This document shows, one piece after another, positions 27,830 through 63,397 of a DNA stretch of 64,000 bases (within the stretch, counting starts at the first letter, position 1; each line of letters begins with the position of its first letter). The stretch is from a virus (taxonomy: Duplodnaviria; Heunggongvirae; Uroviricota; Caudoviricetes), in IMG/VR virus record IMGVR_UViG_3300037466_003234; one strand, given 5' to 3'. The notes under the pieces were generated by a model. That model was not told the origin of the DNA and did not search any database. It was given only the letters and a program-made list of their open reading frames with translations. A program made the translations under genes and the position numbers.

Positions 27830-27832
27830 TTT

Positions 27833-30351: not shown

Positions 30352-30833
30352 TACTCCTCCGAACTATCGGAGTCTTCGTCTTCGTCAGCCTTATTGGCAA
30401 GGAAACTCTCAGCGGCCTTCTTAGCTCTTTCGATCGCGTCTTTCTTCTGCTTATCCTTCTCTTGCTTATACTTAAGCTGAGCATCGCCAGCAGCGTTAAG
30501 AACTTGAGTGATCACGTTCACGTCAGGGATGTCACCTGCTATACCACTAGCAGGGATGGTCGCAGTCCAAAAAGGAGGAGCAGAGATAACCCTTTGTTCT
30601 AATTGCGATAAAGCATAAGCCATGAAGCTCTCGTGCTCATCTGCAGCAAAAGGATTTGCACCAAGTAGTTCCCTATGCTTACGGCCAGCAGCGATTACCT
30701 GCGTAGGCGTTAAATAGCAGCGAAACTTGAACGTTCCTGCGTAGGTACCGTGGATATCACCCTCAGCCCTTAGCTGCCAGGTAGCCACGTCACCATCAAT
30801 TGAAATGTCGCTAAAATCTTTTTTATCAGCCAT
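30351..30833 (-). CDS. hypothetical protein
   Basis: ATG (MADKKDFSD...) with AGAGGAA SD; the track start is a GTG. Confidence 0.55.
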   Translation of the reverse strand: MADKKDFSDISIDGDVATWQLRAEGDIHGTYAGTFKFRCYLTPTQVIAAGRKHRELLGANPFAADEHESFMAYALSQLEQRVISAPPFWTATIPASGIAGDIPDVNVITQVLNAAGDAQLKYKQEKDKQKKDAIERAKKAAESFLANKADEDEDSDSSEE

Positions 30834-31105
30834 AGAGTTAATTCCTCTAACCAAGGGTATCGTAGCTGATATATCATAGCGTTAAAAGCCAAGGAAAAGC
30901 TTCCGCTAACTTTTTGCTAATATAATTATTATAATTAAATTATAGTAACTGTATTGAGTGAATAAATTCGTAAGAACAACTCACTCTCGTGAGGTGTATC
31001 ATATCTTTTTTTAAAAAATGAAAGAAAACGACAAAAAAAGAAAATTTATTTTTGCTATTGTCTTATTTTCTTAAATCAACTATCCTTATGCGAATAGGAG
31101 TAAAT

Positions 31106-36180: not shown

Positions 36181-36642
36181 TTAAACCCCTAAGTATGCCT
36201 TGATCTTGTTGACGTATTTTTCAATTCTTGCTTTAGGAACGAGAGCATCTGGAGGGGTAGCTTCCATAATAGCTATGGCCGTATATAGAGATCCTGCTTC
36301 TAGCGCAGCTTTTGCCCCTGCAAATTTGGTAAGGATCTGAACGATTTGGATAGGGTTGTAGCCCAAAACAATATTTTCTACGCCAACCTCAATAATTATG
36401 GATCTGCCAAAGTCCATAGCGTCTTGAATGGTTCGAGTGATGCCAGGCACTTTTTGATTATGGTCCATAACTACTTGGTAGATTCTGTTCACTTCGCCCT
36501 GCGATAAATCTCTATAGGTGTTAACTGTAAGAATATTACCGTTAACGTCCATAGATGAAATCCAAGAGGAGATGCCAGCTAGTTGCATTTCCTGGGTCAA
36601 AGTGTTCTGATCAATATGTTTGACGTAAGTATAAGTTGCCAT
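36181..36642 (-). CDS. hypothetical protein (possible tail-fibre assembly/chaperone)
   Basis: Immediately downstream of the tail fibre gene. Confidence 0.45.
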   Translation of the reverse strand: MATYTYVKHIDQNTLTQEMQLAGISSWISSMDVNGNILTVNTYRDLSQGEVNRIYQVVMDHNQKVPGITRTIQDAMDFGRSIIIEVGVENIVLGYNPIQIVQILTKFAGAKAALEAGSLYTAIAIMEATPPDALVPKARIEKYVNKIKAYLGV

Positions 36643-39600
36643 TACGATAACTTCTCAAGATTAATAGCGTAAGGCGACGCGTTTGCCGTACCTCCGCTGG
36701 TGTTCCATCTGAGGTCAATTGTTTGAGATCCATTGACGGTAACTACGCAGTCGGTGTAAATTGCGTGCGTATCTCCTGAGCCTATGGCGCCGCCAGTTCT
36801 AACGAGAACGGTAACTGCGGTATCCGCCACTTGAACTCCGTTGGAGTAGATGCTGACGGTCACAAGCCTGTTGTTGGAAGTGGCCGAAACCACCGCTCTA
36901 GCGGTTACTCTATAGGTTCCTGCGGCAGGTGTGAGGGCCATGCCGGTCATCAAGGTGTCTGTAGTGCTTAGCGTAGTGATTACGGTGCTACTAGACGTTC
37001 TAAAGTTCGTAACAGTAACAGCGTGGGTGTGGTCTGCTCTTGCGAAGGAAGTTGCAGACCCTTGGGCATTAGCCGTGCTCGTAGAGATCGAAGTTGCAGC
37101 TGCCGTAGGGATGTTATGAACATGGTCAGCACGAGCAAAGCTGCTTGAGGTTCCAACTGCACTCGTCTGATCTGGAGCCTGTGCGGCAGCCGCAGCCGTA
37201 GGGATGTTATGAACATGGTCAGCACGAGCGAAATTAACGGACGTACCCGCACCGTTAGCTTGGTCAGGAGCCTGAGTAGAAGCTGCTCCAGAAGCGATAG
37301 CGTGGGTGTGGTCTGCGCGAGAGAACGACGTTGATCCACCTTGCGTGTTGATAGATCCAGCGTTTAGGGAGCTTGCAGCAGCCGTAGGGATGTTATGTAC
37401 GTGGTCAGCACGAGCAAGGTTATTTGATGTTCCAGCCGCGTTCACTTGGTCAGGATTCTGAGTAGCAGCTGCAGCGGTAGAAACGGCATGAATATGATCT
37501 GAGCGAGAGAAAGTGGCTCCGATACCTTGAGTGTTAGTGTTATTTGCTCCAATAGATCCGCTAGGCGCAGCCGTAGGGATGTTATGGACGTGGTCAGCAC
37601 GAGCTAGGTTGCCAGACGTTCCGGCAGCATTTGTTTGGTCTGGGATCTGAGAAGATGCTGCACCGGTTGCGATAGCGTGGCCGTGGTCTGCTCTAGAAAG
37701 TGCGTTTTGAGTACCTACCGCATTAGATCCGGTAGCGCTTAAGCCAATTCCCGCAGCTGTAGCTAGAGGATCGGCTCCATTTGGAAGGTGCCTTGAAGCG
37801 TGGGCAGTAACGTCTACGCCGTTAACAGTGCCAGCATTTAAGATATTATTTCCGGCCATGTCCAAAGAGCCAGACATAGCGCGAGATCCATCGCCTAGTA
37901 GGTATTGCTTATGATCGTCCTTATCTAGGCCAAGCAAGTTACCGTGCGTAGATGAAGCGGATATGCCAGATGCTTTGAAACCGATGACTGGGCGCTCGTC
38001 GCGAATCTCGATGAGGTTAGGATAGGTAGTGTTGCTTGCGTTTCCATCACCTTTGACGATAATAGAGGCAATGAGAGTGATACCATCGGTGAAATAAGAT
38101 GGTGGGCTTGGAATATTACCCTGCTCTGCTTCGGTAAGAGTTGAGAATTGATTCTGGCCGTACACAAGCATGTATTTCTCATCATCGTCGTCTCCTACGA
38201 TGTATAGAGAATGCTTAACATATTTACCGGCAGCAATTACCGCAAGTGTTCCAGACCCATCGTCATAATGGGAGTTATCCACGGTGCTAGTGGTGGTTTT
38301 AGTGTAAGTGCTACCGCCGCTGTTACGGAAGTAGGAAACAAAATTTCCTGCGCTTATACCTACAGGTTGGAATTTGTTTCCTGAAAAGTAAAATATGCCT
38401 GAGCTAATGTTTAGCTTTCTTGTGCCTGACTCAGTAACGATAGATCCAGAATCATAAATAGATCCAAGGGCATAGCGGTTAAAAATATCGTTCCTGTTAC
38501 TGGCGTGAGCAGCTACGAAAGGCGACGTATCGATGATCTCAACGCCAGCGCTATCGGTAACTACCCGACCAAATAAGATATTTTGTTCAGTATTTGGCAT
38601 GGTGCTCGAATAGCTGAGGACGCCATCAACATTCACATAGATATAAGAAGAGGTATTGGCAGGCAATGCGATCGATAGGTTTGACCAATCGTAGCGCTTA
38701 AGAGTGCCGGTATCCGCTGTCATCACATAGCCAAAGCCGGCTTCCACGTTAATTGAAAGACCGCTACCTGGAGTTATATCTCCACCCTGAATAAGACCGA
38801 TCGCAGTTCCATGCTCTAGGAGTGGTCTCACGTCAACAGCCGTGGTATGCGTATCTCCCAAATACAATGCGCCAATAGCGGTGAAGCTATTGATAACTGG
38901 GTCGGTGTAAGAGATGGAGATGGTACCGTGGGTTGCGAGCGATGTTTTAGAGCGTTCGAAAGATCCTTCAATACTGCCGGTCGAAAGAGGATGTTCGATC
39001 AAAATATGTTGAGCAGTTTGATTAATTTGAAGTCCGAAGATCTTAACTTTAGGCGCCGCACCGTTGTTAAGTCCATGTAGTCCTGTAGCAAGTCCTTTTA
39101 CGGAAATACTTTGAAAATCAAGCTCTGTACCGTCATAAAATTCTGTGAAAGTGCCGCCGTTACTTTGACCATAGACATTGCTTAACAATACGAGGGTGTT
39201 TACGCCCGATGCTTTAATGAAAGCTTCTGCTGGAGGATTATAGACAGTAGTGAATCCAAAGTTTGTGACGATAAGATATGCCATTGCATTGTTGGCGTTA
39301 TCGATGACAAATCCATTCGTAAAGGCACTAGCGCCGATAGTTGGCGTTTCAAGCTGTAGGAATGCTGGAACTGAAGGGAATGATGCATGGCAATATGCGT
39401 GCGTTTGATTCGCATCAAATTGACAGTTGCTAGCATAGAAAATGCCCGGCACGTCCGTTGGCGAAAAGTAAATACCGTAACTATAGGTAGCGCCTACAAT
39501 TGCTAGATTGTAAATAGCAGCGTTAGCGCAGGCGATGAATACCGGCTCGGTAGGATCTTTAGCCTGAATAACAGTCAGTTTCCTCTCGGCACCAGAGATA

Positions 39601-40172
39601 GCGATATATGGCTTCATTACGATCGTATCTTCTACGTAAGTGCCAATCCCTACCTTGATGAGATATTGATTTGAGACGGATGAGTCTGTGATCGAATCTA
39701 CGGCTGCCTTTAGGGAACTAAAGTGATTTGGAGTAGAAGTGTCGCCTTTGGTGACATAGATAATGTTTTTGTCTGGAAAGAGCCTGGAATTGAAAGAGTC
39801 GTAGTCGGCCTTAGAAATTAAGCCGGAAGTAACCCCTGGTGACGATGCTTGGGGAATATTAATCGTGTTAATGTTGTCGCCAGACTGAGACCAGTTAGGT
39901 GCGGTTCCTGCTGCGCCAGTATTTAGGATCTGCTGTCTGTTTGTGAGTCCGTTGAGGGAACTAAGACCATACGCCTTTGTCCAAGAATCGGTAGTGATAT
40001 CGTAGGTCTCAAGGGACTTTACGTCGGTGTTGTAAATCAAAAGTCCGTTTTGAACGTTGCCTAACTGATCGCGTTCAGCGCTGGTTAGACTTGGAATATA
40101 AAGACCGCTACCCTCGATAGTAAGGAATTCGCCTGAGAAAGGGGTGATATTGTTGACTTTAATTTTACTCAT
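36642..40172 (-). CDS. tail fibre / receptor-binding protein with DHxH tandem repeats
   Basis: 1176 aa. Gly/Ser/Thr/Asn-rich beta-rich composition. C-terminal region holds 8 repeats of (L/F)(A/S)R(A/S)DH(V/T/I/G)H; HxH motifs like the metal-binding needle of T4-type fibres. Confidence 0.75.
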   Translation of the reverse strand: MSKIKVNNITPFSGEFLTIEGSGLYIPSLTSAERDQLGNVQNGLLIYNTDVKSLETYDITTDSWTKAYGLSSLNGLTNRQQILNTGAAGTAPNWSQSGDNINTINIPQASSPGVTSGLISKADYDSFNSRLFPDKNIIYVTKGDTSTPNHFSSLKAAVDSITDSSVSNQYLIKVGIGTYVEDTIVMKPYIAISGAERKLTVIQAKDPTEPVFIACANAAIYNLAIVGATYSYGIYFSPTDVPGIFYASNCQFDANQTHAYCHASFPSVPAFLQLETPTIGASAFTNGFVIDNANNAMAYLIVTNFGFTTVYNPPAEAFIKASGVNTLVLLSNVYGQSNGGTFTEFYDGTELDFQSISVKGLATGLHGLNNGAAPKVKIFGLQINQTAQHILIEHPLSTGSIEGSFERSKTSLATHGTISISYTDPVINSFTAIGALYLGDTHTTAVDVRPLLEHGTAIGLIQGGDITPGSGLSINVEAGFGYVMTADTGTLKRYDWSNLSIALPANTSSYIYVNVDGVLSYSSTMPNTEQNILFGRVVTDSAGVEIIDTSPFVAAHASNRNDIFNRYALGSIYDSGSIVTESGTRKLNISSGIFYFSGNKFQPVGISAGNFVSYFRNSGGSTYTKTTTSTVDNSHYDDGSGTLAVIAAGKYVKHSLYIVGDDDDEKYMLVYGQNQFSTLTEAEQGNIPSPPSYFTDGITLIASIIVKGDGNASNTTYPNLIEIRDERPVIGFKASGISASSTHGNLLGLDKDDHKQYLLGDGSRAMSGSLDMAGNNILNAGTVNGVDVTAHASRHLPNGADPLATAAGIGLSATGSNAVGTQNALSRADHGHAIATGAASSQIPDQTNAAGTSGNLARADHVHNIPTAAPSGSIGANNTNTQGIGATFSRSDHIHAVSTAAAATQNPDQVNAAGTSNNLARADHVHNIPTAAASSLNAGSINTQGGSTSFSRADHTHAIASGAASTQAPDQANGAGTSVNFARADHVHNIPTAAAAAQAPDQTSAVGTSSSFARADHVHNIPTAAATSISTSTANAQGSATSFARADHTHAVTVTNFRTSSSTVITTLSTTDTLMTGMALTPAAGTYRVTARAVVSATSNNRLVTVSIYSNGVQVADTAVTVLVRTGGAIGSGDTHAIYTDCVVTVNGSQTIDLRWNTSGGTANASPYAINLEKLS
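37000..37720. repeat. tandem DNA repeats inside the tail fibre gene
   Basis: GCCGTAGGGATGTTATG(A/T/G)ACRTGGTCAGCACGAGC recurs at about 37108, 37195, 37380 and 37567, alternating with AGCGTGGGTGTGGTCTGC-type units. Confidence 0.7.
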
Positions 40173-41212: not shown

Positions 41213-41288
41213 TGGTCCGAGGGGAGGGAATTGCACCCTCATTTCCGGGTTCGGAAGCCGGCGTTTTAGCTAATTAAACTACCCAAGG
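41213..41288 (-). tRNA. tRNA-like gene, anticodon CCG (Arg) predicted, non-canonical
   Basis: CCA encoded. T-arm GAGGG-TGCAATT-CCCTC. D-stem GTTT/AAAC. Anticodon loop TTCCGAA with a C-C mismatch at the closing pair. Acceptor mismatches at 3-70 and 4-69. Confidence 0.45.
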
Positions 41289-41375
41289 GGCTGTGATGGC
41301 TTTGGGTGAAAAATCAGGTTGTTCGGGCTTGCCAGTAACTCAAATTAGCTATATCGCAAGTACACTTGGAATAAA

Positions 41376-41451
41376 TGGTCCGAGGGGAGGGAATTGCACC
41401 CTCATTTTCTCCTTCACAGGGAGATGTTCTATCTCGCTAAACTACCCAAGG
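41376..41451 (-). tRNA. tRNA-His (GTG), shares acceptor and T-arm with the previous gene
   Basis: Perfect anticodon stem TCTCC/GGAGA, loop CTGTGAA. 3' 31 nt and 5' 14 nt identical to the 41213 gene. CCA encoded. Confidence 0.55.
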
Positions 41452-41461
41452 GACGTTAAAG

Positions 41462-41538
41462 TGGCGGGGCCAGGGGGATTCGAACCCCCGATCTCTGCCG
41501 TGACAGGGCAGCGCATTAGGCCGCTATGCTATGACCCC
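41462..41538 (-). tRNA. tRNA-Asp (GTC)
   Basis: Canonical cloverleaf. T-loop TTCGAAT. Anticodon loop CTGTCAC. CCA encoded. Confidence 0.8.
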
Positions 41539-41543
41539 AAAAA

Positions 41544-41620
41544 TGGCGCACTCCCTGAGACTCGAACTCAGCGCTTACGGTTTAACAGACCGTCTTCTCC
41601 ACCCGGTAGAACTGGAGTGC
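41544..41620 (-). tRNA. tRNA-Asn (GTT)
   Basis: Acceptor GCACTCC/GGAGTGC. Anticodon loop CTGTTAA. T-loop TTCGAGT. CCA encoded. Confidence 0.8.
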
Positions 41621-41625
41621 AAACT

Positions 41626-41702
41626 TGGTAGCGGGTAGAGGTATCGCACCTCTCTGCTAGGCTTATGAGACCTGGCTGGATCTATCTCCAGTCGAACCCG
41701 CT
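41626..41702 (-). tRNA. tRNA-Met/Ile2-like (CAT), non-canonical D-arm and T-loop
   Basis: Acceptor AGCGGGT/ACCCGCT. Anticodon loop CTCATAA. T-arm AGAGG-TGCGATA-CCTCT. Two extra nt before the D-stem. Confidence 0.45.
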
Positions 41703-41723
41703 AAATTAACTTTCCTTTCATTC

Positions 41724-41750
41724 CCCGCCAGGCCCTACTTGCCTGGCGGG
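41724..41750. other. perfect 10-bp GC-rich hairpin between tRNA genes
   Basis: CCCGCCAGGC-cctactt-GCCTGGCGGG. Possible processing or termination element. Confidence 0.35.
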
Positions 41751-41760
41751 ATTTCAAACA

Positions 41761-41836
41761 TGGTGCCTGCTCTTGGTTCCGCTCCAAGTCCTCTAGCTCT
41801 TCAGGCTAGCGCTTCTACTAAGTTAGCTTAGCAGGC
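41761..41836 (-). tRNA. tRNA-Phe (GAA)
   Basis: Acceptor GCCTGCT/AGCAGGC. Anticodon stem CTAGC/GCTAG, loop CTGAAGA. T-loop AGCGGAA atypical. Confidence 0.6.
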
Positions 41837-41841
41837 AAAAT

Positions 41842-41917
41842 TGGTCGGGAAAGCACGATTCGAACGTGCGACCTCCTGTATCCAAAACAGGCCGTCTGAC
41901 CACTGACTTATTTCCCG
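41842..41917 (-). tRNA. tRNA-Pro (TGG)
   Basis: Acceptor CGGGAAA/TTTCCCG. Anticodon stem CCTGT/ACAGG, loop TTTGGAT. T-arm GCACG-TTCGAAT-CGTGC. CCA encoded. Confidence 0.8.
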
Positions 41918-42341: not shown

Positions 42342-42791
42342 TTAGGGGAGGCTTACAGCGCCAGCACCTTCATCTTGAGCACCAGATTCGTCACTTAGAC
42401 GTAGGCCGGTGTAGTTGATGGTGAAACGGCTTGTAGCTCTGGAGTTGTGGTTGCCGTTATATCCGGTAGCCACGCAACCGATAGCGGTTAGGATAGCTTG
42501 GCCAGTTTGACGGTCAACTACGGCAATCGTCACGCCTTCTAGGGTTAGAAGATCCTGAAGCTTAGGAGCTTTAGGAAGTGCGTGAGGTCCGTTACCAATT
42601 ACGCGGAAGCCACCGCATGAGAGGGTGACAGCTTCATAGCTGGTAGGGGTGATTTCGTCTGGGCTGAAACGGCCAAGTAGATGGATTGGCTCAACCCCGA
42701 CACTCATATTGTATGTACAAGTTTCGAAGACACCGACTAGTGCGTTATCCACGTAAACTTTGGCTCTTGCGCCTGTCATTACTTTCGACAT
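42342..42791 (-). CDS. tail tube protein
   Basis: 149 aa directly downstream of the sheath gene. AKVYVDNALVG...RFSPDE...LSCGGFRV is tube-like. Confidence 0.6.
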   Translation of the reverse strand: MSKVMTGARAKVYVDNALVGVFETCTYNMSVGVEPIHLLGRFSPDEITPTSYEAVTLSCGGFRVIGNGPHALPKAPKLQDLLTLEGVTIAVVDRQTGQAILTAIGCVATGYNGNHNSRATSRFTINYTGLRLSDESGAQDEGAGAVSLP

Positions 42792-42822: not shown

Positions 42823-44964
42823 TTACCCAGCGTTTTGCTGAACCTGCGAGAGGCTGATTGCAATTGGGATGAAGTACACGCTGGTTGCGAGCTTCGCTTC
42901 CACAGAAACATCCATCTCTGGTCCAGAGATCGATACTTTTGCGTTCTTGAATCCGAGCGGAGCGTCGTCAGAAGCCGCAGTCATCTTTAGCTTCTTATAT
43001 CCGTCAAACTTCTGAGCCAAGAAAGCTAGTGCGGTAGCAGCGTCAACGTCTGCCAAGGACTTACCGACGAAAGCCTTTTGGAAGCTGTCAGCGAGGTCGA
43101 GGGCAAGGATGTCTGCCAAGTACACAGCCTGGATGCTGTTGTAGACGAAGTTAGTGTCGAAGCCGTAAGTGGTTTGGTCAGAAACCCAACGATTTCCTGC
43201 TGCATCCTTAGTGAGGATGAGGAGGCCAGCGTCGAGTGCGTCTTCAACGTCGCCAGGGCTACCAGAGTCGAGACCGCTTGGGTCAACGAAGCTAATAACG
43301 TTTGCGAACTTGTTGGTGATGGACTTATAGAATCCACCAGCTTGCATACCTGCTGCGACTGCAGCGCCGTACCAAGGCATGAACGTAACGACGTTACCGG
43401 AAGCGTCTACTTGGGAAACCTTTTGGCATGTTAGAGATGCGCGGTAGTTTGCCAAGGATTGAGAAGCTGCCTTAACGTTCGAAAAGCTATCCCAGATGGA
43501 GAGCATTGCGATACGATTGCGCTTGAGCTTAGGCGTGCTGTATTGGATGCAGTGAGACTTAACGATCGCGTGAATTGCCGAGATCGTGTAAGCCGAAGTG
43601 CTGTCCGTGAGGCCATCAGCGATGTCGTCAGCAGCGTCGCGGCTGAAGAGTGGAACGATGATGTTGCACTGAATACCAGCAAGCTGGTTAACAGCGTTAA
43701 CGATATCGTTTGCCGAGGTAGCGCCACGAGCGCCGCCAGCAAGGTAGGCTGGAGCAGACATAACGCCTGGGAGACCTGCCTTAGCGGTAGCAACGAACTC
43801 CACAGCGTGGGAGGTAGCCATTGCCTTCTTGAATGCTGCCATAGCGCTCTTCACGCGGCCTGCCTTAGCTGCTGGAGAAGCGATTCCGATTGCGGAAACT
43901 TCGTCAAGAGCCGAAGGAGCTTGCTGCTGAGCTTTAGCGGAAGCAGAAGCGCTGTATCCAGGCTGAGAAGCGATGTAAGATGCTAGGTCTGCGATCGTGC
44001 GGAACTGGCTCATGTCGATGCTGAGGTTAGAACCTGATCCACCGGTAACCGTCGTGGAGAGGGTTCCAGAAGCGATCGAAAGAGTTGCAGTCGTGCCAGC
44101 ATAACCAACCATGAGGGCAACTTCTGCGTTAACATCGATCGTTTCGCTGAGGCCGGTATCTGGACGAGAGATAGCGACTTCAACGCCTGGCTCTTGAGCG
44201 GAAACAACGAGTCCAGCCGAAAGGCCGAGAGCAGCGAGATCGCCAGCTTGAGCGTCAATGAGTTCAAACGACTTGCCCCAACCCTTACGGTTAGCGGAAG
44301 CGTCAACTGCAACCGTTAGCTTGATGCTATTGGATGCCGTTCCTGGTGCGGCGGTGATGCCAGCAGGAAGTTGAGCATTAAGTTCGGTGCAAAGAGCAGC
44401 GACCGTATTGTGGTCCGAAGACGTGGTGCTGAGGGTAACGGTTGTCTTAGCGCCGCCGTTCAAGCGAACGTCGAACGTTAGACCGTTAAGAGCAGATCCA
44501 AGGGCTGCGATCGTGTCACCGCTAACGGTAGGAGCAGATTCAGCAGCGATTTGGGTGATTTGGAACTTATACTTGTTTCCAGACTTACCAACGTTCTGAT
44601 CTTTGAAGGTACCGAAGTCGCTATCAACGATAGCGGAAGCCTTGGTGCCTTGGTTCGTCTTAACGATGTAGACGAGGTTAGCAGATCCGCTGATGTCAGC
44701 GTCGCTCGATGGAGCAGAAAGAGCGCGGAAAGCGTCTACGATCTGGCCGCTCTGATAAGCCTGGGTGACTTTATCGAGCTGGTCAGGGGTGAATGCGTTG
44801 TCCTTGAGGGCAACTTCTTGGTAGCTGGCGCCGCCATCGGCTTCACCGATAATAACGACAATACCAGAAGCTCCAAGACCTACTGGGTTACTTTTAACAG
44901 TAACGTTAGGATAAGCACCTGGAATATTGGTGTTTACAAAGCTTGTAACTAGTCTTTGAGACAT
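42823..44964 (-). CDS. contractile tail sheath protein
   Basis: 713 aa. N-terminus NIPGAYPNVTV...GIVVIIGEADGG and C-terminus NRWVSDQTTYGFDTNFVYNSIQAVYLADILALDLADSFQKAFVGK resemble the sheath N/C domains. Followed by the tube gene. Confidence 0.75.
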   Translation of the reverse strand: MSQRLVTSFVNTNIPGAYPNVTVKSNPVGLGASGIVVIIGEADGGASYQEVALKDNAFTPDQLDKVTQAYQSGQIVDAFRALSAPSSDADISGSANLVYIVKTNQGTKASAIVDSDFGTFKDQNVGKSGNKYKFQITQIAAESAPTVSGDTIAALGSALNGLTFDVRLNGGAKTTVTLSTTSSDHNTVAALCTELNAQLPAGITAAPGTASNSIKLTVAVDASANRKGWGKSFELIDAQAGDLAALGLSAGLVVSAQEPGVEVAISRPDTGLSETIDVNAEVALMVGYAGTTATLSIASGTLSTTVTGGSGSNLSIDMSQFRTIADLASYIASQPGYSASASAKAQQQAPSALDEVSAIGIASPAAKAGRVKSAMAAFKKAMATSHAVEFVATAKAGLPGVMSAPAYLAGGARGATSANDIVNAVNQLAGIQCNIIVPLFSRDAADDIADGLTDSTSAYTISAIHAIVKSHCIQYSTPKLKRNRIAMLSIWDSFSNVKAASQSLANYRASLTCQKVSQVDASGNVVTFMPWYGAAVAAGMQAGGFYKSITNKFANVISFVDPSGLDSGSPGDVEDALDAGLLILTKDAAGNRWVSDQTTYGFDTNFVYNSIQAVYLADILALDLADSFQKAFVGKSLADVDAATALAFLAQKFDGYKKLKMTAASDDAPLGFKNAKVSISGPEMDVSVEAKLATSVYFIPIAISLSQVQQNAG

Positions 44965-46929: not shown

Positions 46930-47691
46930 TTAACCCCAATCTTTCATGACCTTAGTCATTAAGTCGGGCAAAACCTTAGTTTCCCATTCTTTCATTGCCC
47001 ACTCTACGGCGCGATCCAAGAACTTCTTGGCGTCCACACCTGGGTGTAACCATTTATCTTTTTGATTAGGCTTGTCGGAGACTGTTCTAAAGGTAAATAT
47101 ATCACGCCTGACTCCGCCACCTGGGGTCTGGGTCTGGTAGATACGCAATCTGTCCAAAACAGGGGTATTGCCCTTGCCTGGGGTTTCGCCACCAAAGTTG
47201 AATTCATGGAGCAGTCCAACGCGAGGGCTGCCTTGGGCGTTCTTTTCAATTTTCTTAAATGGAACCTTTTGCTGCTTTAGCTCAGACTTGATTCTATCGA
47301 CTAGGTTCTGGGCGTAGCCATTCATTTGGCTTGGAGCTTTGCTGTGCTCAAAAGGAACTACTCTGTACTTATGACCATCTTTAGCCGTTTCGCCATCTCT
47401 CAATAGGCCTGGCTTCATGTCAAAATTAGCGTCCAAGCCTTCTTCGATCCAGAGAGCATCTTCGTCGATGGCAACAACCCAAATACCGTCAGAAACCTCT
47501 TCAAACTTTAAGTTATCCTGTAGAGTCTTAAGTGAAGACTTAAGCTCCTGACTGGCTAACTCAGCTACTTTGGCGTGAGTCATGGATGCGAGTGCTTTGA
47601 CGCCCTGAATGAACTCTTGTTCAGCTTCAACTGCAAATTCTTTGAATTGAGCAGCAATAGCAGCAACGTCAATGTTGATCTTAATGCTCAT
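46930..47691 (-). CDS. virion-module protein (unknown)
   Basis: ATG at 47691 with GAGGAA SD (MSIKINIDVAA...). Confidence 0.55.
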   Translation of the reverse strand: MSIKINIDVAAIAAQFKEFAVEAEQEFIQGVKALASMTHAKVAELASQELKSSLKTLQDNLKFEEVSDGIWVVAIDEDALWIEEGLDANFDMKPGLLRDGETAKDGHKYRVVPFEHSKAPSQMNGYAQNLVDRIKSELKQQKVPFKKIEKNAQGSPRVGLLHEFNFGGETPGKGNTPVLDRLRIYQTQTPGGGVRRDIFTFRTVSDKPNQKDKWLHPGVDAKKFLDRAVEWAMKEWETKVLPDLMTKVMKDWG

Positions 47692-47900
47692 CAGTGTTCC
47701 TCGAAGGAGGTTTGACAGGCACGCCGGTAGGGCTTTGAACCATACCTTGCTTACGATCGATAAAGCGAGTCTTGCCAGTTTTTGGATCAACTACCTTTTG
47801 CTGACCTTTGGCGTTAATTGCGCCTGGAGGCATAGGTGTTCTGGCGATATGCTTAGTAGTGTGTTTTGCCGATAGTTTGCCGATAGGCTGACCTACCGGC

Positions 47901-49190
47901 TTACTGCTGTGGGGATTCCGCAGCGTCCTCCTGGGCCGCTGCAGGAGGAGCGGCAGGCGTTTCAGCTTGCTGCCCTGGCTGTTCCGTTGGATCGGCTGGA
48001 GTTTCTTCGGATGGTCCAAGGCCTAGCATCTTTGCCATTTCAATCATGGCCTTAAGCATCATGATCGAAGCTTGATATAGCTGCGGCGCTTGTTCTTTTG
48101 CGCGTTCGAGAATGTCTTTGCTTTGCTTAAAGCCATCAAGGGCTTCGGACACCATTCCAACTACTTTTTCGCGTGCGATCTGATCTGCGTGCTGATCAAG
48201 TCCACCTTGGAGAACTTGCGTGAGATCTGGACCTTGACCTTGATCTTCTTCAGAAAGGCCCATGTCCGCAGGAACGTTTTCTTGGTCTCCTGGGAGCGCC
48301 TGCCCATTCACTGGAAGGGCAGCGTCATCTGACATCGGATCTACTGGAGCTTCTTGATCAAAATGTTGCAGAATATTCTGCATAGCTTGAGCAGTCTCAG
48401 GATCATCTTGTTCTGATCCTTCTGCTGATCCGACGGCTGTGGGGTCTTGCCCAGCAGCGACTTTAGCGTCGTACTCAGCGCAGTGGGGGCAGTCACAACT
48501 GTCTGCACCACCGCGTTCGTCGTATTCTTTACAGTATGGGCAATTGTCGTGATCGTGTTCTTCGCTATTTCCTTCAGCTTGCTTAGCATCGTATTCCTTA
48601 CAATATGGGCAGTCATCGCCGCATGCATGTCCGTCAGCGCCATCCATTTCTGCGCAATAAGGACAATCGTGATGATCATCAGCCGGAGCCGGTTGATCGG
48701 TTGTGGTTTGAACGTCGTCTGATTTTTGTTCTGGAGTCATGTAAGCTTCTCCTAGTTTCTTTTGTTCGGCAGAAGCGTCATCTGCTCCAAGGCTTGATTG
48801 GGCTAGCGCATAGTCCTGCTCTACACTGTCGTCGTAGTTAACGACTTGGTCTTTGCCGCGAAGTTTTCCGACCATGAGGGATTTGCCAGCCTGAGAAAGG
48901 TCTTGTCCAACGCCGACAGTCATGGTTAGGCCTGTCGCGAACTGATAGTCTTTGCGAAGTTCTTCAATGTGGTCCATGGCTTGAGGAGGAACCTGAAAGG
49001 TGCCTTCGTCGCCACCGCCAGAAATGCGGGTTCCGCCCATTTCAGCTACCCAGCGGGTAACGATTTCATGGCCGAGATCAATGCGCTGAGAGGCCTCGCT
49101 GAGACCTTGTGCGTCGTTTGCTAAAATTGCTCTTCCGACCAAACGACCGGCGTTGTCGCCGTCGTAGGCCATAATTAACATGTTATCCAC
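47901..49190 (-). CDS. acidic virion-module protein with N-terminal DxD...GGDE palm-like motif and four CPxC zinc-knuckle repeats
   Basis: IMAYDGDNAG...ISGGGDEGTFQV at residues about 7-62. DCPYCAEMD / DCPYCKEYD / NCPYCKEYD / DCPHCAEYD repeats. Long acidic tail. Confidence 0.55.
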   Translation of the reverse strand: MDNMLIMAYDGDNAGRLVGRAILANDAQGLSEASQRIDLGHEIVTRWVAEMGGTRISGGGDEGTFQVPPQAMDHIEELRKDYQFATGLTMTVGVGQDLSQAGKSLMVGKLRGKDQVVNYDDSVEQDYALAQSSLGADDASAEQKKLGEAYMTPEQKSDDVQTTTDQPAPADDHHDCPYCAEMDGADGHACGDDCPYCKEYDAKQAEGNSEEHDHDNCPYCKEYDERGGADSCDCPHCAEYDAKVAAGQDPTAVGSAEGSEQDDPETAQAMQNILQHFDQEAPVDPMSDDAALPVNGQALPGDQENVPADMGLSEEDQGQGPDLTQVLQGGLDQHADQIAREKVVGMVSEALDGFKQSKDILERAKEQAPQLYQASIMMLKAMIEMAKMLGLGPSEETPADPTEQPGQQAETPAAPPAAAQEDAAESPQQ

Positions 49191-55431: not shown

Positions 55432-55472
55432 GGGGCCAGTAGCCGACGATGCTGGCCCCTATTCATTTTCTA
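55432..55472. terminator. hairpin between convergent genes (bidirectional terminator candidate)
   Basis: AGGGGCCAG-loop12-CTGGCCCCT then ATTCATTTTCT. Confidence 0.45.
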
Positions 55473-56136
55473 CGTAATATTCGCCATCTTCCGATTTAAC
55501 GATTTTCTTTGGATTTCCTTCGGTCGGTAAATACTGACCGTCCAAAACCGCCGCATTTACCCATACTTTGCCGTCTTTGTAGGTATAGCCGCGAGACTCG
55601 TGAATGTGACCAAAGATATGGAGTTTCACATTGGTCTCCATGATCCTCTTATAGAGGGCTGGGCAGCCAACGTTTTTATTTTGATGTGGAATAAAATCTA
55701 GGCGATCCCAAGCGGGGCCATGGGTAATAAGGATTTCGGTATCCTCTGGGATCATATCCCAGTGGGGTTGAATTTCGATCTGATTGCGATTAAATGCCCA
55801 ATTGCAGAATTCTGGCTGAACAGGCGAACCCCAGATCTTAATTCCTTCGATTTCGATTCCGCTATCGTTAAGGAGTATGATCCCGCGATTCTTGCACTCG
55901 TCTGCGCAGAGGCTTGGATTTTCCTCAAAGAGCCAGTCGTGGTTGCCTGGAACGAATATCTTATGCTTGTAATTCTGTTTGGCATACCAGTCCAAAAAGT
56001 TCATTACTTCGCTAACTCTGCCGCCAAGGGTGGCGTCGCCAGCGTGAATAAGAATGTCTCCGCCAGGCATGGTAAATTTGTTATGCCTATTATGGGTGTC
56101 CGAAATAGCGTGAATTTTGATACCTTCTAAACTCAT
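55459..56136 (-). CDS. calcineurin-like metallophosphoesterase
   Basis: HAISDTHNRH, HAGDATLGG and VPGNHDW (GDxHG / GDxxDRG / GNH[DE]). Also ITHGPAW and GHIHE. Confidence 0.7.
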   Translation of the reverse strand: MSLEGIKIHAISDTHNRHNKFTMPGGDILIHAGDATLGGRVSEVMNFLDWYAKQNYKHKIFVPGNHDWLFEENPSLCADECKNRGIILLNDSGIEIEGIKIWGSPVQPEFCNWAFNRNQIEIQPHWDMIPEDTEILITHGPAWDRLDFIPHQNKNVGCPALYKRIMETNVKLHIFGHIHESRGYTYKDGKVWVNAAVLDGQYLPTEGNPKKIVKSEDGEYYVENE

Positions 56137-56270: not shown

Positions 56271-57653
56271 TTAGTGGAGTTGGCCAGTGATGTTCTCGAT
56301 GAGAACATTCTTGCGAGGCTGATAAACAGCCAAGCTGAGGAAGCGGAAGTGCGCTTCTGGGAGCGACAAATCGCTAACAGCGAGCTTGAGCTTGCTGTAT
56401 GGAGCGAGTTGAGCGAGGCCCATCGTGTTTGCTTGGACCAAGAATCCGGTGACCGAGCCTGGAGCGCGGTTGCCGAGGTCGGTGAACACTGGGTTGCCAG
56501 CGCCTTGAGCAACGCGACCGATGAACTTAGCAGAAGCAGCGCTTCCACCAACGTCAGAGCGGTAAACGTTGTAATACTTAGCCTGAGCAACAGCGCCGAT
56601 CGTGACCGTGATCTTGTGCTGAGCAGCGATCGTTACAGATCCAGCAGCCGAAGGCATGGACTCACCGCGTTCGTTGCAAGCCGTAGCGTAGTACGTGAAT
56701 GCGCCGGCAGCGAGGAGGGTTCCTGCGGCACCTGCGTCAGCAACCGTGATCGAAGGAGCAGCTGGGCTGCCAGAACGAGCGCGGGCTGGGCGGGTCTTAC
56801 CAGACAAGAAGCGAGAAGCTTCTAGGCTGACAACTGCGCTGGAGGTCCACTGAGTGCGGAGGTGAGCGCCGGTTGATTCTTGAGCAGATCCAGCAAGAAC
56901 GATACGCTCCTTAGCGTGTGCGATCTTGTTGTATGCAGACAAGCTGATTGGGTCGAGCATGAGCTTGTCAGCTGCGCCCATGTTCATTGCAGAACGAACT
57001 GCAGCGTCTTCGATGATGGATTGCGAGAGCGTTCCACCAGCAGAGAGGACGACGGTTTGGTCAGAGCCAAACTCAGCGAACATAAGGTCTTGGGTGTTCG
57101 ACTGAGCGTCCGATTGACGAACTTGCTGGTCGAGACCGATCATGTTAGGAACCTTAGCAGCTGCCAATGGGTTACCATCGAACACACCTGCGTTGGAGTA
57201 GTCAGATTGACCACGGAAGCAGTCGAACTCGATGTCGCCAGCGAGCTTCATAGCTGCATCGCTAGCTGCGCGGTCTTCAGCCTTTTGGCCGTCGAACGTG
57301 CCGATCAAGTTAGCGGCAACGGTGACACGACGAGTCGTGCTGTAGTATGCCATAGGCACCACTGCACGAACGTAGTTCGAGGTTTCTTCTTCCCCGATAC
57401 CACCTTCATACTGTGCCGATCCACCAAAGATACCGTAGTCTAGCTGACGGTTGAATTGGTGAAGCTGGGACTTAACGTCCTTAGAAGGGATCATCTTCTG
57501 AAGCTTAATGTGTTGGTCTTCGAAAGTGACGTTGTGCATAACAGGGGAAAGGTCTTCCACCATTAGCGCAGCGCCTTGGGCTAGTTGGCCTGGAGCAGCA
57601 TTATAAGAACCTGCTTCCAAAGCTTTCATGAGTGATTGTAGTTGCTCAATCAT
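56271..57653 (-). CDS. major capsid protein (HK97-fold type)
   Basis: 460 aa immediately downstream of a scaffold-like gene. Ala/Gly/Ser/Thr-rich capsid-like composition. Confidence 0.6.
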   Translation of the reverse strand: MIEQLQSLMKALEAGSYNAAPGQLAQGAALMVEDLSPVMHNVTFEDQHIKLQKMIPSKDVKSQLHQFNRQLDYGIFGGSAQYEGGIGEEETSNYVRAVVPMAYYSTTRRVTVAANLIGTFDGQKAEDRAASDAAMKLAGDIEFDCFRGQSDYSNAGVFDGNPLAAAKVPNMIGLDQQVRQSDAQSNTQDLMFAEFGSDQTVVLSAGGTLSQSIIEDAAVRSAMNMGAADKLMLDPISLSAYNKIAHAKERIVLAGSAQESTGAHLRTQWTSSAVVSLEASRFLSGKTRPARARSGSPAAPSITVADAGAAGTLLAAGAFTYYATACNERGESMPSAAGSVTIAAQHKITVTIGAVAQAKYYNVYRSDVGGSAASAKFIGRVAQGAGNPVFTDLGNRAPGSVTGFLVQANTMGLAQLAPYSKLKLAVSDLSLPEAHFRFLSLAVYQPRKNVLIENITGQLH

Positions 57654-60838: not shown

Positions 60839-60914
60839 GGGGTCGTAGCTCAGTTGGTAGAGCGGTAGCTTTGCAAGCTATAGGTCAAGGGTTCGAGTCC
60901 CTTCTTCTCCACCA
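60839..60914 (+). tRNA. tRNA-Ala (TGC) with imperfect acceptor stem
   Basis: D-arm GCTC-AGTTGGTA-GAGC. Anticodon loop TTTGCAA. T-arm AAGGG-TTCGAGT-CCCTT. CCA encoded. G3-U70 present; mismatches at 5-68 and 6-67. Confidence 0.6.
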
Positions 60915-60957
60915 AGTTTAATTTGCCGCTTGCGGGCGGGGCCTGCCGCAACAGGTC

Positions 60958-61029
60958 GCTATCGTCGTCTAGGGGCCTAGGATACCGTCATTTCGGGCGG
61001 AGACGCTGGTTCAAATCCAGCCGATAGCT
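60958..61029 (+). tRNA. tRNA-Glu-like gene with aberrant anticodon loop
   Basis: Acceptor GCTATCG/CGATAGC. D-arm TCGTCTAGGGGCCTAGGATA and T-arm GCTGG-TTCAAAT-CCAGC parallel E. coli tRNA-Glu. Anticodon region CCGTCATTTCGGGCGG is 1 nt short (6- or 8-nt loop). Confidence 0.4.
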
Positions 61030-61142: not shown

Positions 61143-61922
61143 ATGATTTATCTCAATGACCAACCGGTCAATACTACCATTTTCCCAGACAACACTTCTC
61201 AGGTCTGGAAGCTTCCCAAAGATATCTTTTTTAAATCCTATATTTCAATTAAATGGGCTTTTTCTAATGAAGGCGAGTTTTTACAGCTTGCTCAGCTAAA
61301 GCATCTTTTGAGTAATAAGTGCCAATACGGTCCATTTATCACTCTTACCTTAACCTATTTGCCATATGGCAGACAAGATAAGGAAGTTTGCAATGAGGCC
61401 ACTTTCGCCCTTCGCACTTTTGCCGCTCTGCTCAACACCTTGCAATTCGACTCTGTCATCATTCATGATCCTCACAGTAAAATTGCGCTGGATTTGATCA
61501 ATAATTCTCATGCAGTTTATCCAGAGAGAAAAATTTTAGACGCTAGAGTGGCCACAAATTCTCCGCTACTCTGCTATCCCGATAAGGGCGCTGTAAGTAA
61601 ATATTCTGAGACGTATCCTGGGTGGGATTACATTTACGGTCAAAAAGTCCGCGATCAATTGACTGGAAACATTACGCACTATGAGCTTATCGGTGATTGT
61701 GTCGGCCAAAACGTACTTATCGTGGACGATATCTGCGATGGCGGAATGACTTTTATTTTGCTTGCCAAAAGCTTGCTGGCAGCAGGTGCTAAAGAGGTAA
61801 ACCTTTTTGTCACCCATGGAATTTTCTCCAAAGGGACGAGAGTTCTATTTGAAGCAGGCATTAAACGCGTGTTTACCCAAGATGGTGAAGTCGGGCCACG
61901 CGAAACCTCAATTCAGTTCTAA
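61143..61922 (+). CDS. PRPP-synthetase-family pyrophosphokinase (candidate ADP-ribose pyrophosphokinase, Adps-like)
   Basis: VLIVDDICDGGMTFILLAKSLLAAGAKEVNLFVTHGIFS is the PRPP-binding / phosphoribosyltransferase motif. Directly upstream of a NAMPT-family gene. Confidence 0.7.
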   Translation: MIYLNDQPVNTTIFPDNTSQVWKLPKDIFFKSYISIKWAFSNEGEFLQLAQLKHLLSNKCQYGPFITLTLTYLPYGRQDKEVCNEATFALRTFAALLNTLQFDSVIIHDPHSKIALDLINNSHAVYPERKILDARVATNSPLLCYPDKGAVSKYSETYPGWDYIYGQKVRDQLTGNITHYELIGDCVGQNVLIVDDICDGGMTFILLAKSLLAAGAKEVNLFVTHGIFSKGTRVLFEAGIKRVFTQDGEVGPRETSIQF

Positions 61923-61936: not shown

Positions 61937-63397
61937 ATGAAGAACTTATCTGCAATGTTGTTGTGTGATTTTTATAAAATTAGCCATAGGGCTATGTATC
62001 CAGTGGGCACTGAAGTCGTTTATTCGACCTGGACGCCTCGCGCTTCTCGCATGAATGGAGTGGAAAAGGTCGTTGCCTTTGGCTTCCAAGCTTTCTTGAA
62101 AGAGCTTAACGAATATTTTGACGTTAATTTCTTCGGTAGAGATAAGGAAGAGGTTGTTTTTGAATATTCTCGTATTGTCAAACACACCTTAGGTGTCGAA
62201 AATCCTGAAACTAAGCATATCGAAGATTTGCATGATCTTGGATACCTGCCTTTGTCGATCAAGGCCCTCCCAGAAGGAACCTTGGTACCACTTCGCGTTC
62301 CAATGCTTACGATCCAAAACACCGACCCTCGCTTCTTCTGGCTCACCAACTACATTGAGACCTTGGCCTCATGCCAACTCTGGCAGCCTTGCACGTCGGC
62401 AACGATTGCACGCGAATATCGTCAGATCCTTGATAAATGGGCCATGAAGACCGTTGGAAATACTGATTTCGTTCCTTTCCAGGGCCACGACTTCTCTATG
62501 CGCGGCATGAGTTCGCTTGATTCAGCGATGCTCAGTGGCATGGGCCACCTCACCCAATTCGTTGGCACCGACACGATTCCTGCTATCCAGGTAGCTGAAA
62601 AGTATTATGGAGCTAATGTTCAGACGGAAATGGTAGGAACGTCAATTCCTGCAACGGAACACTCGATCCAATGTGCTTATGGTAACGACGTTGAATACTA
62701 CAAAAACATGATCAATCGCGTCCATCCAAGTGGCTTCGTATCGATCGTGTCTGACGGATACGACTTCTGGGATGTCATCACTCGCGTAATTCCTTCCTTG
62801 AAACGCGATATCTTGAAACGCGATGGTCGCGTTGTTGTTCGCCCTGACTCTGGAGATCCAGTTCTTATTGTTTGCGGTGATCCAAATGCTCCAGTTGGAA
62901 GCCCTGAATATAAGGGTGCAATTGAGTGTCTTTACGAAACTTTTGGTGGAACCGTCACTAAAGAAGGTTATAAAGTGCTCGATAGCCATATCGGCTTGAT
63001 TTACGGTGACGCTATTACCCTTCGCCGCGCAGAAGAGATCTGCGAGCGTTTGGCTGCCAAGAGATTTGCTTCGATTAATGTTGTGTTCGGTATCGGTTCT
63101 TATACGTACCAATACAATACTCGTGACACCTTCGGATTTGCCCTTAAGAGCACGCTCTGCGTGATTAACGGCGAAGAAAAGCATATCTTTAAAGACCCTA
63201 AGACCGATAACGGCATCAAAAAGAGCCAAAAAGGTCGCGTGGCCGTCTTGAAGGATGGTAAAGAAGGTCTTAAATTCGTTGACGGCCTTGGCCTTCAAGA
63301 TAACCTCGTTAGTGATCAGCTTGTCGAGATTTATCGTGACGGCGAAATCCTTAAAGAGTATACTTTCGAAGAGATTCGCGCTCGCCTGAAGGGCTAA
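61937..63397 (+). CDS. nicotinamide phosphoribosyltransferase family protein (NAMPT/NadV-like; candidate nicotinamide ADPR transferase, Namat-like)
   Basis: N-terminus LLCDFYKISH and overall about 486 aa are NAMPT-like. Adjacent to the Prs-like gene. Confidence 0.75.
   Translation: MKNLSAMLLCDFYKISHRAMYPVGTEVVYSTWTPRASRMNGVEKVVAFGFQAFLKELNEYFDVNFFGRDKEEVVFEYSRIVKHTLGVENPETKHIEDLHDLGYLPLSIKALPEGTLVPLRVPMLTIQNTDPRFFWLTNYIETLASCQLWQPCTSATIAREYRQILDKWAMKTVGNTDFVPFQGHDFSMRGMSSLDSAMLSGMGHLTQFVGTDTIPAIQVAEKYYGANVQTEMVGTSIPATEHSIQCAYGNDVEYYKNMINRVHPSGFVSIVSDGYDFWDVITRVIPSLKRDILKRDGRVVVRPDSGDPVLIVCGDPNAPVGSPEYKGAIECLYETFGGTVTKEGYKVLDSHIGLIYGDAITLRRAEEICERLAAKRFASINVVFGIGSYTYQYNTRDTFGFALKSTLCVINGEEKHIFKDPKTDNGIKKSQKGRVAVLKDGKEGLKFVDGLGLQDNLVSDQLVEIYRDGEILKEYTFEEIRARLKG

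Follow-up and report, generated by a model that had tools for sequence, protein, structure and literature searches.

What is a signalling-nucleotide cyclase, if it is one, doing among the capsid and tail genes of a virus? This question is raised by a gene at positions 47901..49190 of a stretch of 64,000 nucleotides (nt; hereafter, the window) from the IMG/VR virus record IMGVR_UViG_3300037466_003234, a member of the Caudoviricetes. A sequence-only reading had described its product as an acidic protein with a DxD strand and a GGDE loop reminiscent of palm-domain nucleotide cyclases (GGDEF, Cas10, or mCpol), followed by four CPxC repeats, and had cautioned that the match might be coincidental. 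Herein, we found that amino acids (aa) 5-125 form a true palm domain of the mCpol family, the Cas10-type minimal cyclases, joined to a C-terminal module whose last part appears to be reached by frameshifting. New here are the occurrence of a known enzyme family in a virus, its architecture, and its mode of expression.

The coordinates given for the open reading frame (ORF) proved exact. However, the gene lies on the minus strand, which had been missed; plus-strand translation of the same positions is riddled with stops. It begins with a GTG at 49190 (an alternative ATG is at 49181) and encodes 429 aa, with AGGAGG sitting 4 nt 5′ of the GTG and a start that shares 8 nt with the stop of an upstream 329-aa gene. 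All of the quoted motifs were found in this translation: IMAYDGDNAG at aa 6-15, the GGDE segment ISGGGDEGTFQV at aa 56-67, and four repeats of the form [DN]CP[YH]C[AK]E[YM]D, that is, DCPYCAEMD (175), DCPYCKEYD (193), NCPYCKEYD (216), and DCPHCAEYD (233). The protein is indeed acidic, with 85 D+E against 27 K+R and an isoelectric point (pI) of 4.05-4.1. A JGI contig of 170,935 bp encodes the same protein, called there from the ATG at a length of 426 aa (P0001), and an IMG/VR contig with 99% identity spans 170,122 bp. The window is part of an uncultured ~170-kb myovirus resembling Myxococcus phage Mx1 (169.6 kb), the only cultured relative, with which it shares a major capsid protein that is 54.9% identical.

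Of the protein layout proposed previously, the palm and the repeats stood, while a conserved C-terminal helical domain and a putatively frameshift-encoded tail had been overlooked. The zero-frame features are listed here, with the predicted local distance difference test (pLDDT) scores of an AlphaFold2 (AF2) model:

47901..49190, minus strand: zero-frame ORF, 429 aa, GTG start
48816..49178, minus strand: mCpol palm domain, aa 5-125 (PF18182, phmmer match to OptS, AF2, Foldseek, conservation)
Within the palm: catalytic or conserved positions D10/D12, G59-G60-D61-E62, K109, G112, K113, and S34 (equivalent to the specificity position S30 of KpOptS)
48735..48815, minus strand: two conserved post-palm helices, aa 126-152, with a near-invariant EExKLGEAY; pLDDT ~90, modelled with the palm
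48468..48668, minus strand: four CxxC repeats, aa 175-241, 10 Cys in total; presumed zinc knuckles, a lineage-specific linker insert; pLDDT 59-72
48273..48467, minus strand: acidic linker, aa 242-306; poorly conserved, predicted disordered; pLDDT 40-50
48018..48272, minus strand: C-terminal three-helix domain, aa 307-391, PDL..VLQ.GLD.HAD...APQLY..MLKAMIEMAKMLGL

The mCpol palm domain and its active site

By every criterion that could be tested, the protein is a member of the mCpol family, and it is neither a GGDEF nor a Cas10 protein. Specifically, the Pfam mCpol model (PF18182) matched aa 7-119 at E = 2.6e-10, covering positions 2-114 of its 114 and scoring 41.1 bits where 26.4 is the cut-off, and phmmer searches of PDB sequences recovered end-to-end matches to two solved Panoptes synthases, 9nwn (E = 1.8e-5) and 9mnr (E = 3.4e-5). 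In the alignment to KpOptS, D10 corresponds to Asp6, D61 to Asp57, and S34 to S30. The AF2 model, built from a 120-homologue alignment, had pLDDT of 93-98 for aa 1-130 and 89-98 for aa 1-150, and is a palm fold; its top Foldseek matches in the PDB were the OptS/mCpol structures 9mnr, 9pd0, and 9nwn, with target-normalised template modelling (TM) scores of 0.85-0.89 and a root-mean-square deviation (rmsd) of 1.5-2.1 Å over 116-120 columns at 24-26% identity. A second tier comprised GGDEF proteins, GTP cyclohydrolase III, Cas10, and class III cyclases, the GGDEF structures having TM scores of 0.5-0.56 (target-normalised) and rmsd of 3.4-4.2 Å. The suggestion of a palm cyclase was thus correct and can be narrowed to mCpol.

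Searches with the models of related families gave little. The GGDEF model PF00990 had no match at E ≤ 10 (the loop of the window protein reads GGGDEG), the Cas10 palm model PF22335 remained below threshold, at 13.5 bits where 27 is the cut-off (E = 0.081), and the window protein contained no further Cas10 domains. Nothing in PHROGs or PADLOC was matched by the protein, nor did megablast of the region or tblastn of the protein yield a match among 50,697 phage records. In BFVD, we found one uncharacterised 'uncultured Caudovirales' protein with the same layout, as well as two viral GGDEF proteins.

The active-site residues were conserved to an extent that exceeds chance by far when taken together with the PF18182 match. 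A database search returned 248 relatives, of which the 120 listed all carry PF18182, have lengths of 383-694 aa, and in many cases lie on 155-177-kb contigs. Across 121 aligned homologues, D10, D12, S34, G59, G60, D61, G93, G95, K109, G112, and K113 were invariant and position 62 was either E or Q. D10, D12, D61, and K109 were intact in 48 of 50 distinct IMG/VR-type loci, and the full set of eight residues (D10, D12, G59, G60, D61, K109, G112, K113) in 46 of the 50. Among distant 50%-cluster representatives (n = 127), 122 retained D10, D12, and D61 together (D10, 122; D61, 127) and 119 retained S34. Thus DxD and GGD(E/Q) are kept in essentially all homologues, and the conserved residues persist among sequences that are otherwise only 35-55% identical. 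Of the two outcomes that the sequence-only reading had named as fatal to its proposal, a fold other than a palm and unconserved DGD/GGDE residues, neither was seen. An exhaustive phmmer search with the N-terminal domain (1.84 billion representatives) gave 775 matches at E ≤ 1e-3 and 570 at E ≤ 1e-10, and most of the best 150 were long proteins; 295 unique mCpol loci have been counted in public genomes (PMC12657230), a figure not strictly comparable with the 570.

The enzymes to which this domain is closest are the OptS/mCpol synthases of Panoptes (9mnr, 9pd0, 9nwn; PF18182), which belong to the same family by Pfam, sequence, and fold and consist of a minimal palm of ~115 residues. The phage protein shares with OptS both catalytic Asp residues and the product-specificity Ser (S34, equivalent to S30), and neither has a sensor domain. 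However, the phage version is located in the late structural operon of a virulent-type phage rather than in a bacterial defence island, is adjoined by no S-2TMbeta or CARF-TM effector, and is fused to ~300 extra residues (linker, helical domain, and predicted frameshift tail). Moreover, its loop is the canonical GGDE, whereas that of OptS is degenerate (AADG in KpOptS). With no effector beside it and a viral rather than a cellular genome around it, the window gene does not belong to a Panoptes system. The Cas10 palm of type III CRISPR and the GGDEF cyclases fall with the phage domain into one palm/RRM superfamily, all having the metal-binding DxD strand and a beta-hairpin with GGD[DE]; in contrast to these, the phage protein fails both Pfam models, lacks the HD, D2, and D4 domains and a CRISPR RNA (crRNA) complex, and has neither an I-site nor GGDEF-type accessory helices.

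In KpOptS, Asp6 and Asp57 are catalytic residues (PMC12657218), and the identity of S30 shifts product choice. Since strong purifying selection has preserved every part of the catalytic signature, the mCpol domain of the window protein is very probably an active nucleotide cyclase or oligomerase. Because it has no regulatory or sensor domain, its activity is expected to be constitutive, by analogy to OptS. The invariant Ser at the S30 position is the sole hint, an indirect one, toward synthesis of a cyclic di- or tri-adenylate.

A constant C-terminal module and a putatively recoded tail

The architecture of the family comprises mCpol, CxxC repeats in particular lineages, an acidic linker, and a three-helix domain. 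Only the first and last CxxC pairs of the window protein (C176/C179 and C234/C237) were kept at ≥90% in the close subfamily, and most of the wider family is without any CxxC. The three helices modelled by AF2 span residues 324-356, 358-367, and 369-388, with ten-residue blocks across aa 341-390 averaging pLDDT of 84-93. A hidden Markov model (HMM) of this domain matched 100 of the 127 distant representatives of the family as well as WNM70340.1, the orthologue in Mx1 (E ~1e-6); the domain is also present in orthologues that have no mCpol. In searches with the C-terminal module, nothing scored better than phrog_328, which corresponds to the C-terminal end of a head maturation protease and was not significant (E = 0.027), and a likeness of GL(x)DHADxIAR in the helical domain to the N-terminus of a GGDEF protein of Mx1 was rejected (HMM E = 0.34). 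Many versions with a fused tail have a conserved linker motif between helical domain and tail, EW(H/N)DPFP(T/K)HPD(K/Q)GGE.KPGH (alignment columns ~120-140), and this motif is absent from the window protein.

The N-terminal part of the gene varied more than the C-terminal part. mCpol was absent altogether from three loci, L042 (9248-10687), L043 (9251-10690), and L058 (6222-7550), which have identical neighbours, a tail fused in frame, and proteins that begin at the Cys repeats with six CxxC. In L063 and L064, the domain carries D10N, G59S, and G112E. The Mx1 protein WNM70340.1, annotated as 'hypothetical protein', is the only orthologue found in a cultured phage; too divergent for tblastn, it was located through capsid similarity and synteny, its flanking genes also being orthologous. 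It matched the HMMs of the N-terminal domain (2.6e-15) and, as above, of the helical domain, and has a fused tail-like C-terminus, yet differs in having lost catalytic residues (D10S, D61A, K109Q, K113G), in scoring below the Pfam cut-off (21 bits), in lacking CxxC, and in a long insert before the tail. GNAT acetyltransferase domains were fused N-terminally in one relative (P0003, aa 35-94) and C-terminally in others (P0254, aa 529-612; P0266, aa 709-775). Because the helical domain and tail are kept where mCpol is deleted (L042, L043, L058) or degenerate (Mx1), they seem to be the indispensable part of the gene, and we infer that they are also the ancestral part. By analogy, such a pattern would fit a module for assembly or anchoring that stays constant while its enzymatic heads are exchanged.

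The tail itself was first met in the three loci without mCpol, in which the gene reads into a basic C-terminus, ...GKLPTSATTQHVARTP...GAINAQGQKKYVDPKNGK...GKPVKP. In the window, the tail sequence is encoded just 3′ of the mCpol stop codon, in the +1 frame, with the following elements:

47681..47911, minus strand: basic tail, ~75 aa, pI 10.8, +1 frame, (H)SSKPVGQPIGKLSAKHTTKHIARTPMPPGAINAKGQQKVVDPKTGKTRFIDRKQGMVQSPTGVPVKPPSRNTDEH
47907..47915, minus strand: TCC_CCA_CAG (zero frame), a putative site of recoding, homologous by position to the heptamer C_CCA_AAG of -1-class loci
47879..47900, minus strand: stem-loop GCCGGUAGG-UCAG-CCUAUCGGC, 9 bp, beginning 6 nt after the site
47926/47927..47932, minus strand: Shine-Dalgarno (SD)-like AGGAGG(A), 12 nt upstream of the C run

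The stop of the tail (47681-47683) overlaps the ATG (47693) of the next gene. An HMM of the tail gave one match per locus in 63 loci. Of these, 18 have the tail as an in-frame fusion, 37 have it in frame -1, and eight, the window among them, in frame +1; 16 of 120 database proteins also have it fused. Used by itself as a query, the tail brought up small mis-called ORFs only, and no further architecture emerged. For the -1 class, 29 of 30 distinct loci carried a canonical X_XXY_YYZ heptamer in frame, 3-30 nt ahead of the stop; C_CCA_AAG and C_CCA_AAA made up most cases, with A_AAA_AAG or G_GGA_AAG in some. A stem-loop was predicted ~6-7 nt after the heptamer in most loci, its stem sequence varying by subclade and its position constant; fold energies had a mean z of -2.4, with z < -2 in 19 of 33 sequences. 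Often, an SD-like GGAGG lies 10-16 nt upstream of the slip site, and similar elements occur in many -1-class loci.

The +1 class differs from the -1 class in a spacer that is one nt shorter, with the same hairpin. NCC_CCA_CAG was kept in all six distinct +1-class sequences, and the SD-like AGGAGG stood at equal spacing in four of the five other than the window. The window hairpin recurs in L001, L007, L010, and L054 with compensatory changes, and the 126-nt region containing it gave z = -3.34. At the window site, the run of four C residues would permit a P-site tRNA-Pro to re-pair two bases back, a -2 shift that enters the +1 frame. The SD-like AGGAGGA is itself predicted to be paired in a hairpin with the upstream CUCCUCCU (47943-47950), and such sequestration could tune its availability to the ribosome. 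As a separate observation, six tRNA genes (Arg, His, Asp, Asn, Phe, Pro; 41213-41917, minus strand) split the virion tail module after the tube gene, and the phage-encoded tRNA-Pro(UGG) may bear on slippage at CC_CCA.

Collectively, across the family the tail is apparently reached either by in-frame fusion or by programmed frameshifting, -1 in most loci and -2 or +1 in the window; two isoforms, of 429 aa and ~502-503 aa, are thus expected. The design is that of phage proteins with a recoding site close to the gene's 3′ end, including lambda gpG/gpGT, P2 E/E+E′, T7 10A/10B, Listeria phage PSA Cps/Tsh, and the -2 site of Mu, with which the predicted cassette of the family shares the slippery heptamer, the short spacer, the stem-loop, and a C-terminal extension on a fraction of molecules, as well as the alternation of -1, +1/-2, and in-frame versions among related phages. 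In contrast, there is no relationship of sequence or fold to these proteins, the window gene sits between the head genes and the sheath gene, and its short form already carries an enzyme domain. To our knowledge, no frameshift-extended phage structural or assembly protein bears an enzyme. Alternation of -1, +1, and in-frame extensions within families of phage structural proteins has been reported, as have -2 frameshifting in phage Mu and +1 frameshifting on Pro codons in Listeria phage PSA (PMC5009743).

Late-operon setting, proposed role, and rival explanations

The mCpol-bearing protein is the product of a conserved late-operon gene of Mx1-like myoviruses, in keeping with the virion gene block to which the sequence-only reading had assigned it. 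The landmarks are:

56271-57653, minus strand: major capsid protein, upstream of the mCpol gene
42823-44964, minus strand: tail sheath, downstream of the mCpol gene
42342-42791, minus strand: tail tube, downstream of the mCpol gene

Specifically, the order on the minus strand was two small head genes, the major capsid gene, a gene for an MPPED2-like metallophosphoesterase, about seven genes of unknown or 'virion structural' annotation, the mCpol gene, a pair of genes with orthologues in Mx1 (WNM70341 and WNM70343), sheath, and tube. A scan of that strand for terminators placed the two strongest hairpins (14 and 10 bp) one behind the capsid gene and one behind the tube gene, with only weak 5-7-bp matches between them (31 sites in the whole scan, ~20 being expected by chance). 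Because no strong terminator-like hairpin lies within the operon, co-transcription of the mCpol gene with the late genes is suggested. Synteny was kept in a 172-kb contig of a metagenome-assembled genome (MAG) at NCBI and in Mx1. The family was found only on phage-like contigs of 150-177 kb, and a scan of 185,579 species genomes gave four matches, all of them short MAG contigs with inconsistent taxonomy.

By Pfam, no nucleotide-sensing effector was adjacent to the gene among its window neighbours, and PADLOC gave no significant match; none was found in another 65 window ORFs or near the MAG-contig locus (L001/L002), the sole homologue locus with Pfam-annotated neighbours. The 64-kb window, about one-third of the genome, showed no known family of anti-CBASS, anti-Thoeris, or ring-nuclease proteins, and phmmer searches of the PDB with four neighbouring genes found nothing. 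The MPPED2-like metallophosphoesterase (225 aa; 55459-56136, minus strand; PDB 3rl4, E = 1.5e-37) directly follows the major capsid gene. Mammalian MPPED2 is an enzyme of the cyclic-nucleotide phosphodiesterase type. The gene is kept at this capsid-adjacent position in the close subclade, including loci without mCpol, and is absent from several mCpol-bearing loci. In the head module of Mx1 there is a separate palm cyclase, the GGDEF 'nucleotide cyclase' WNM70324.1 (OR576727.2; L003 2174-2905, record 17173-17904; PF00990, E = 1.3e-9), encoded between a giant prohead protease and the capsid gene, with no equivalent in the window. The Mx1 head-to-tail block (L003 9405-15711; record 24404-30710) also encodes a 1479-aa 'NUDIX hydrolase' and a 619-aa 'kinase', large enzyme genes that suggest the region generally hosts enzyme-bearing, possibly particle-associated proteins.

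Characterised only in 2025, mCpol is the synthase of Panoptes, a guard that senses phage sponges and phosphodiesterases, and in the literature searched it is described only in prokaryotic genomes. The Panoptes enzyme is constitutive and its product represses an effector (PMC12657218, PMC12657230); the guard fires when phage sponges or phosphodiesterases deplete the repressing 2′,3′-c-di-AMP or cA3. Evasion has been described through loss of the phage sponge or phosphodiesterase gene, or through a phosphodiesterase that spares 2′,3′-c-di-AMP. We found no published description of phage-encoded mCpols in the literature searched, although a passing viral mention in Burroughs et al. 2015, where mCpol was first described, is possible.

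The reading that we favour, and hold to be moderately probable, is that the protein is an assembly- or virion-associated carrier with an active cyclase aimed at host cyclic-nucleotide immunity. The modularity of the gene, its operon position, and the fixed-ratio design of its predicted isoforms make an assembly or virion-associated role of its C-terminal module the most economical reading, since frameshift isoforms in fixed ratio are typical of phage structural and assembly proteins. Under this model, the N-terminal mCpol would make a signalling nucleotide constitutively; the acidic, partly Cys-rich linker would tether it to the three-helix domain, to which the basic tail would be added by frameshifting; and short and long isoforms would both be made, one or the other associating with particles or with their assembly. 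In this scheme, the assembly or virion anchor would be formed by the helical domain and tail, and mCpol (GNAT in some relatives) would be enzymatic cargo. Virion-delivered enzyme fusions are known among MuF-toxin polymorphic proteins, T4 Alt and the internal proteins, and phage 'polyvalent proteins'. Their design can be likened to that seen here, with a particle-targeting or assembly module and swappable heads (mCpol, GNAT, or none) among morphogenesis genes; however, there is no homology to MuF or to T4 capsid-targeting sequences, and a search for a proteome of Mx1-like phages found none.

The weakest step in this model is the last, in which the product would act on host cyclic-nucleotide immune signalling, either late in infection or, if the protein is packaged, immediately after ejection. 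Mx1-like phages probably make their own immune-signalling nucleotides, judging from the conserved active site. In the most attractive version, the product would be an inhibitory ligand (2′,3′-c-di-AMP or cA3) that silences Panoptes-type guards while the phage depletes other signals. Such ligand replenishment is made attractive by the MPPED2-like phosphoesterase in the same operon, yet that gene does not co-vary with mCpol. In its full form, with mCpol on an assembly or virion module as a counter to Panoptes-type inverse guards, holding the host suicide effector off either late in infection or through a packaged and ejected isoform that frameshifting selects, and with phage-borne mCpols a large unrecognised branch of the family, we regard the proposal as unlikely. 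On this proposal, phage mCpols might also be an evolutionary source or sink of the bacterial enzymes.

Several observations weigh against the favoured reading. The helical domain and tail had no significant Pfam, PHROG, or PDB match, and the AF2 model of that module was poor (pLDDT 59.8), and a role in assembly or anchoring is suggested by context and analogy. The loss of catalytic residues in Mx1 indicates that the enzyme is dispensable in at least one viable phage. The ~85 ORFs of the window (64 of ~171 kb) yielded neither an effector or receptor (CARF, SAVED, S-2TMbeta) nor a known sponge, and co-variation of the MPPED2-like phosphoesterase with mCpol was tested and rejected. Additionally, the slip site of the window is non-canonical: it reads CC_CCA_CAG with a 6-nt spacer, the tail in the +1 frame, and no canonical heptamer, and thus requires an unusual -2 or +1 event.

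Were the cyclase instead a cytoplasmic, non-virion late enzyme joined to a chaperone like gpG/gpGT, the account would differ from the favoured one in location and timing only; roles might include lysis timing, superinfection exclusion, or takeover of host physiology via signals resembling c-di-AMP or c-di-GMP. We give this a modest but real chance. In gpG/gpGT, too, an acidic helical part is followed by a -1 extension close to the 3′ end, and these products are not in virions (PMC5009743); late co-transcription is suggested as above, and the separate head-module GGDEF cyclase of Mx1 hints at an interest in host second messengers. However, the gene is not located between the tube and tape-measure genes, the usual chaperone site (where L001 has other small ORFs), and there is no likeness of sequence or fold to gpG/GT-type chaperones. 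It is improbable that the mCpol fold was exapted as a non-catalytic structural or interaction module that makes no signalling nucleotide. The Mx1 orthologue does keep a fold-level match without D10, D61, K109, and K113, the substitutions in L063/L064 and the missing domain in three loci point the same way, and the gene is in a structural operon, yet near-invariance of the Asp pair, the GGD(E/Q) loop, K109, and K113 across hundreds of sequences at 35-55% identity is expected of catalysis, not of a scaffold, and S34 is likewise invariant in the 121 close homologues and present in 119 of the 127 distant ones.

We consider it very improbable that the palm is a template-independent or priming polymerase with the phage genome or a protein as its substrate, as in Thg1-like addition of nucleotides to DNA ends during packaging. 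The palms of GGDEF, Cas10, Thg1, and mCpol proteins are related (PMC12657218), weaker structural matches included Y-family and other polymerase palms, and the basic tail could bind DNA, but the nearest relatives in sequence and structure are two biochemically proven cyclases, the specificity Ser is common to KpOptS, and the domain is without fingers, thumb, or template-binding elements. Finally, a tail that is an independent 50-aa gene starting from the ATG at 47833, with slip-like sequences by coincidence and no recoding, is scarcely credible. Gene callers do annotate the tail as a separate ORF of 46-99 aa (50 aa in the window, P0138; 48 aa in L001), and the window has no canonical heptamer. 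Nevertheless, 47833 is the first in-frame ATG of the tail frame and lies 26 codons in, past a conserved GKL...H.ARTP; because these 26 codons of conserved frame precede any start codon, independent initiation fails to explain the conservation. In several loci, the tail frame opens just 19-31 nt before the stop, leaving no room for a start codon, and both the heptamers with spaced hairpins in 29 of 30 distinct -1 loci and the in-frame fusions in 18 loci and 16 of 120 database proteins argue for recoding.

The large and strongly conserved clade of phage mCpols is a directly testable candidate for phage-made immune nucleotides, which might serve as decoy or antagonist or as a signal that manipulates the host. 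With it, the known diversity of the family moves toward viruses, and the finding touches an arms-race model that is very recent and still actively contested. The tail offers a new, tractable cassette of putative recoding in which -1, -2/+1, and in-frame versions alternate in one gene family, with enzyme heads swapped on a constant module. If packaged, the protein would be a cyclic-nucleotide synthase delivered by the virion, of which no case was found in the literature searched.

Other genes of the window

Outside the region around the mCpol gene, a fibre-like protein of 1176 aa (36642-40172, minus strand) has many (S/A)RADH(T/V)H(A/N)I repeats in its C-terminal half and no PHROG match. Two further tRNA genes, one for Ala and one with an odd anticodon loop, lie at 60839-61029 on the plus strand. 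These are followed on the same strand by a set for salvage of nicotinamide adenine dinucleotide (NAD), consisting of a ribose-phosphate pyrophosphokinase (61143-61922; phrog_619) and a nicotinamide phosphoribosyltransferase (61937-63397; phrog_448, E = 8e-201). A cytidylyltransferase-like Pfam match that we assume to belong to this set was placed at 4089-4619 (minus strand), the pooled scan naming no ORF. In other phages, NAD-salvage sets counter NAD-depleting defences. A pooled Pfam scan of 65 window ORFs additionally detected response-regulator receiver, SPFH/Band-7, GHKL-type ATPase, and RIO1-like kinase domains, unusual accessory genes outside the structural block; as the scan lists families rather than ORFs, the four were placed only tentatively, at 20344-20772, 31052-32983, 22777-24879, and 26291-26740 (plus strand).

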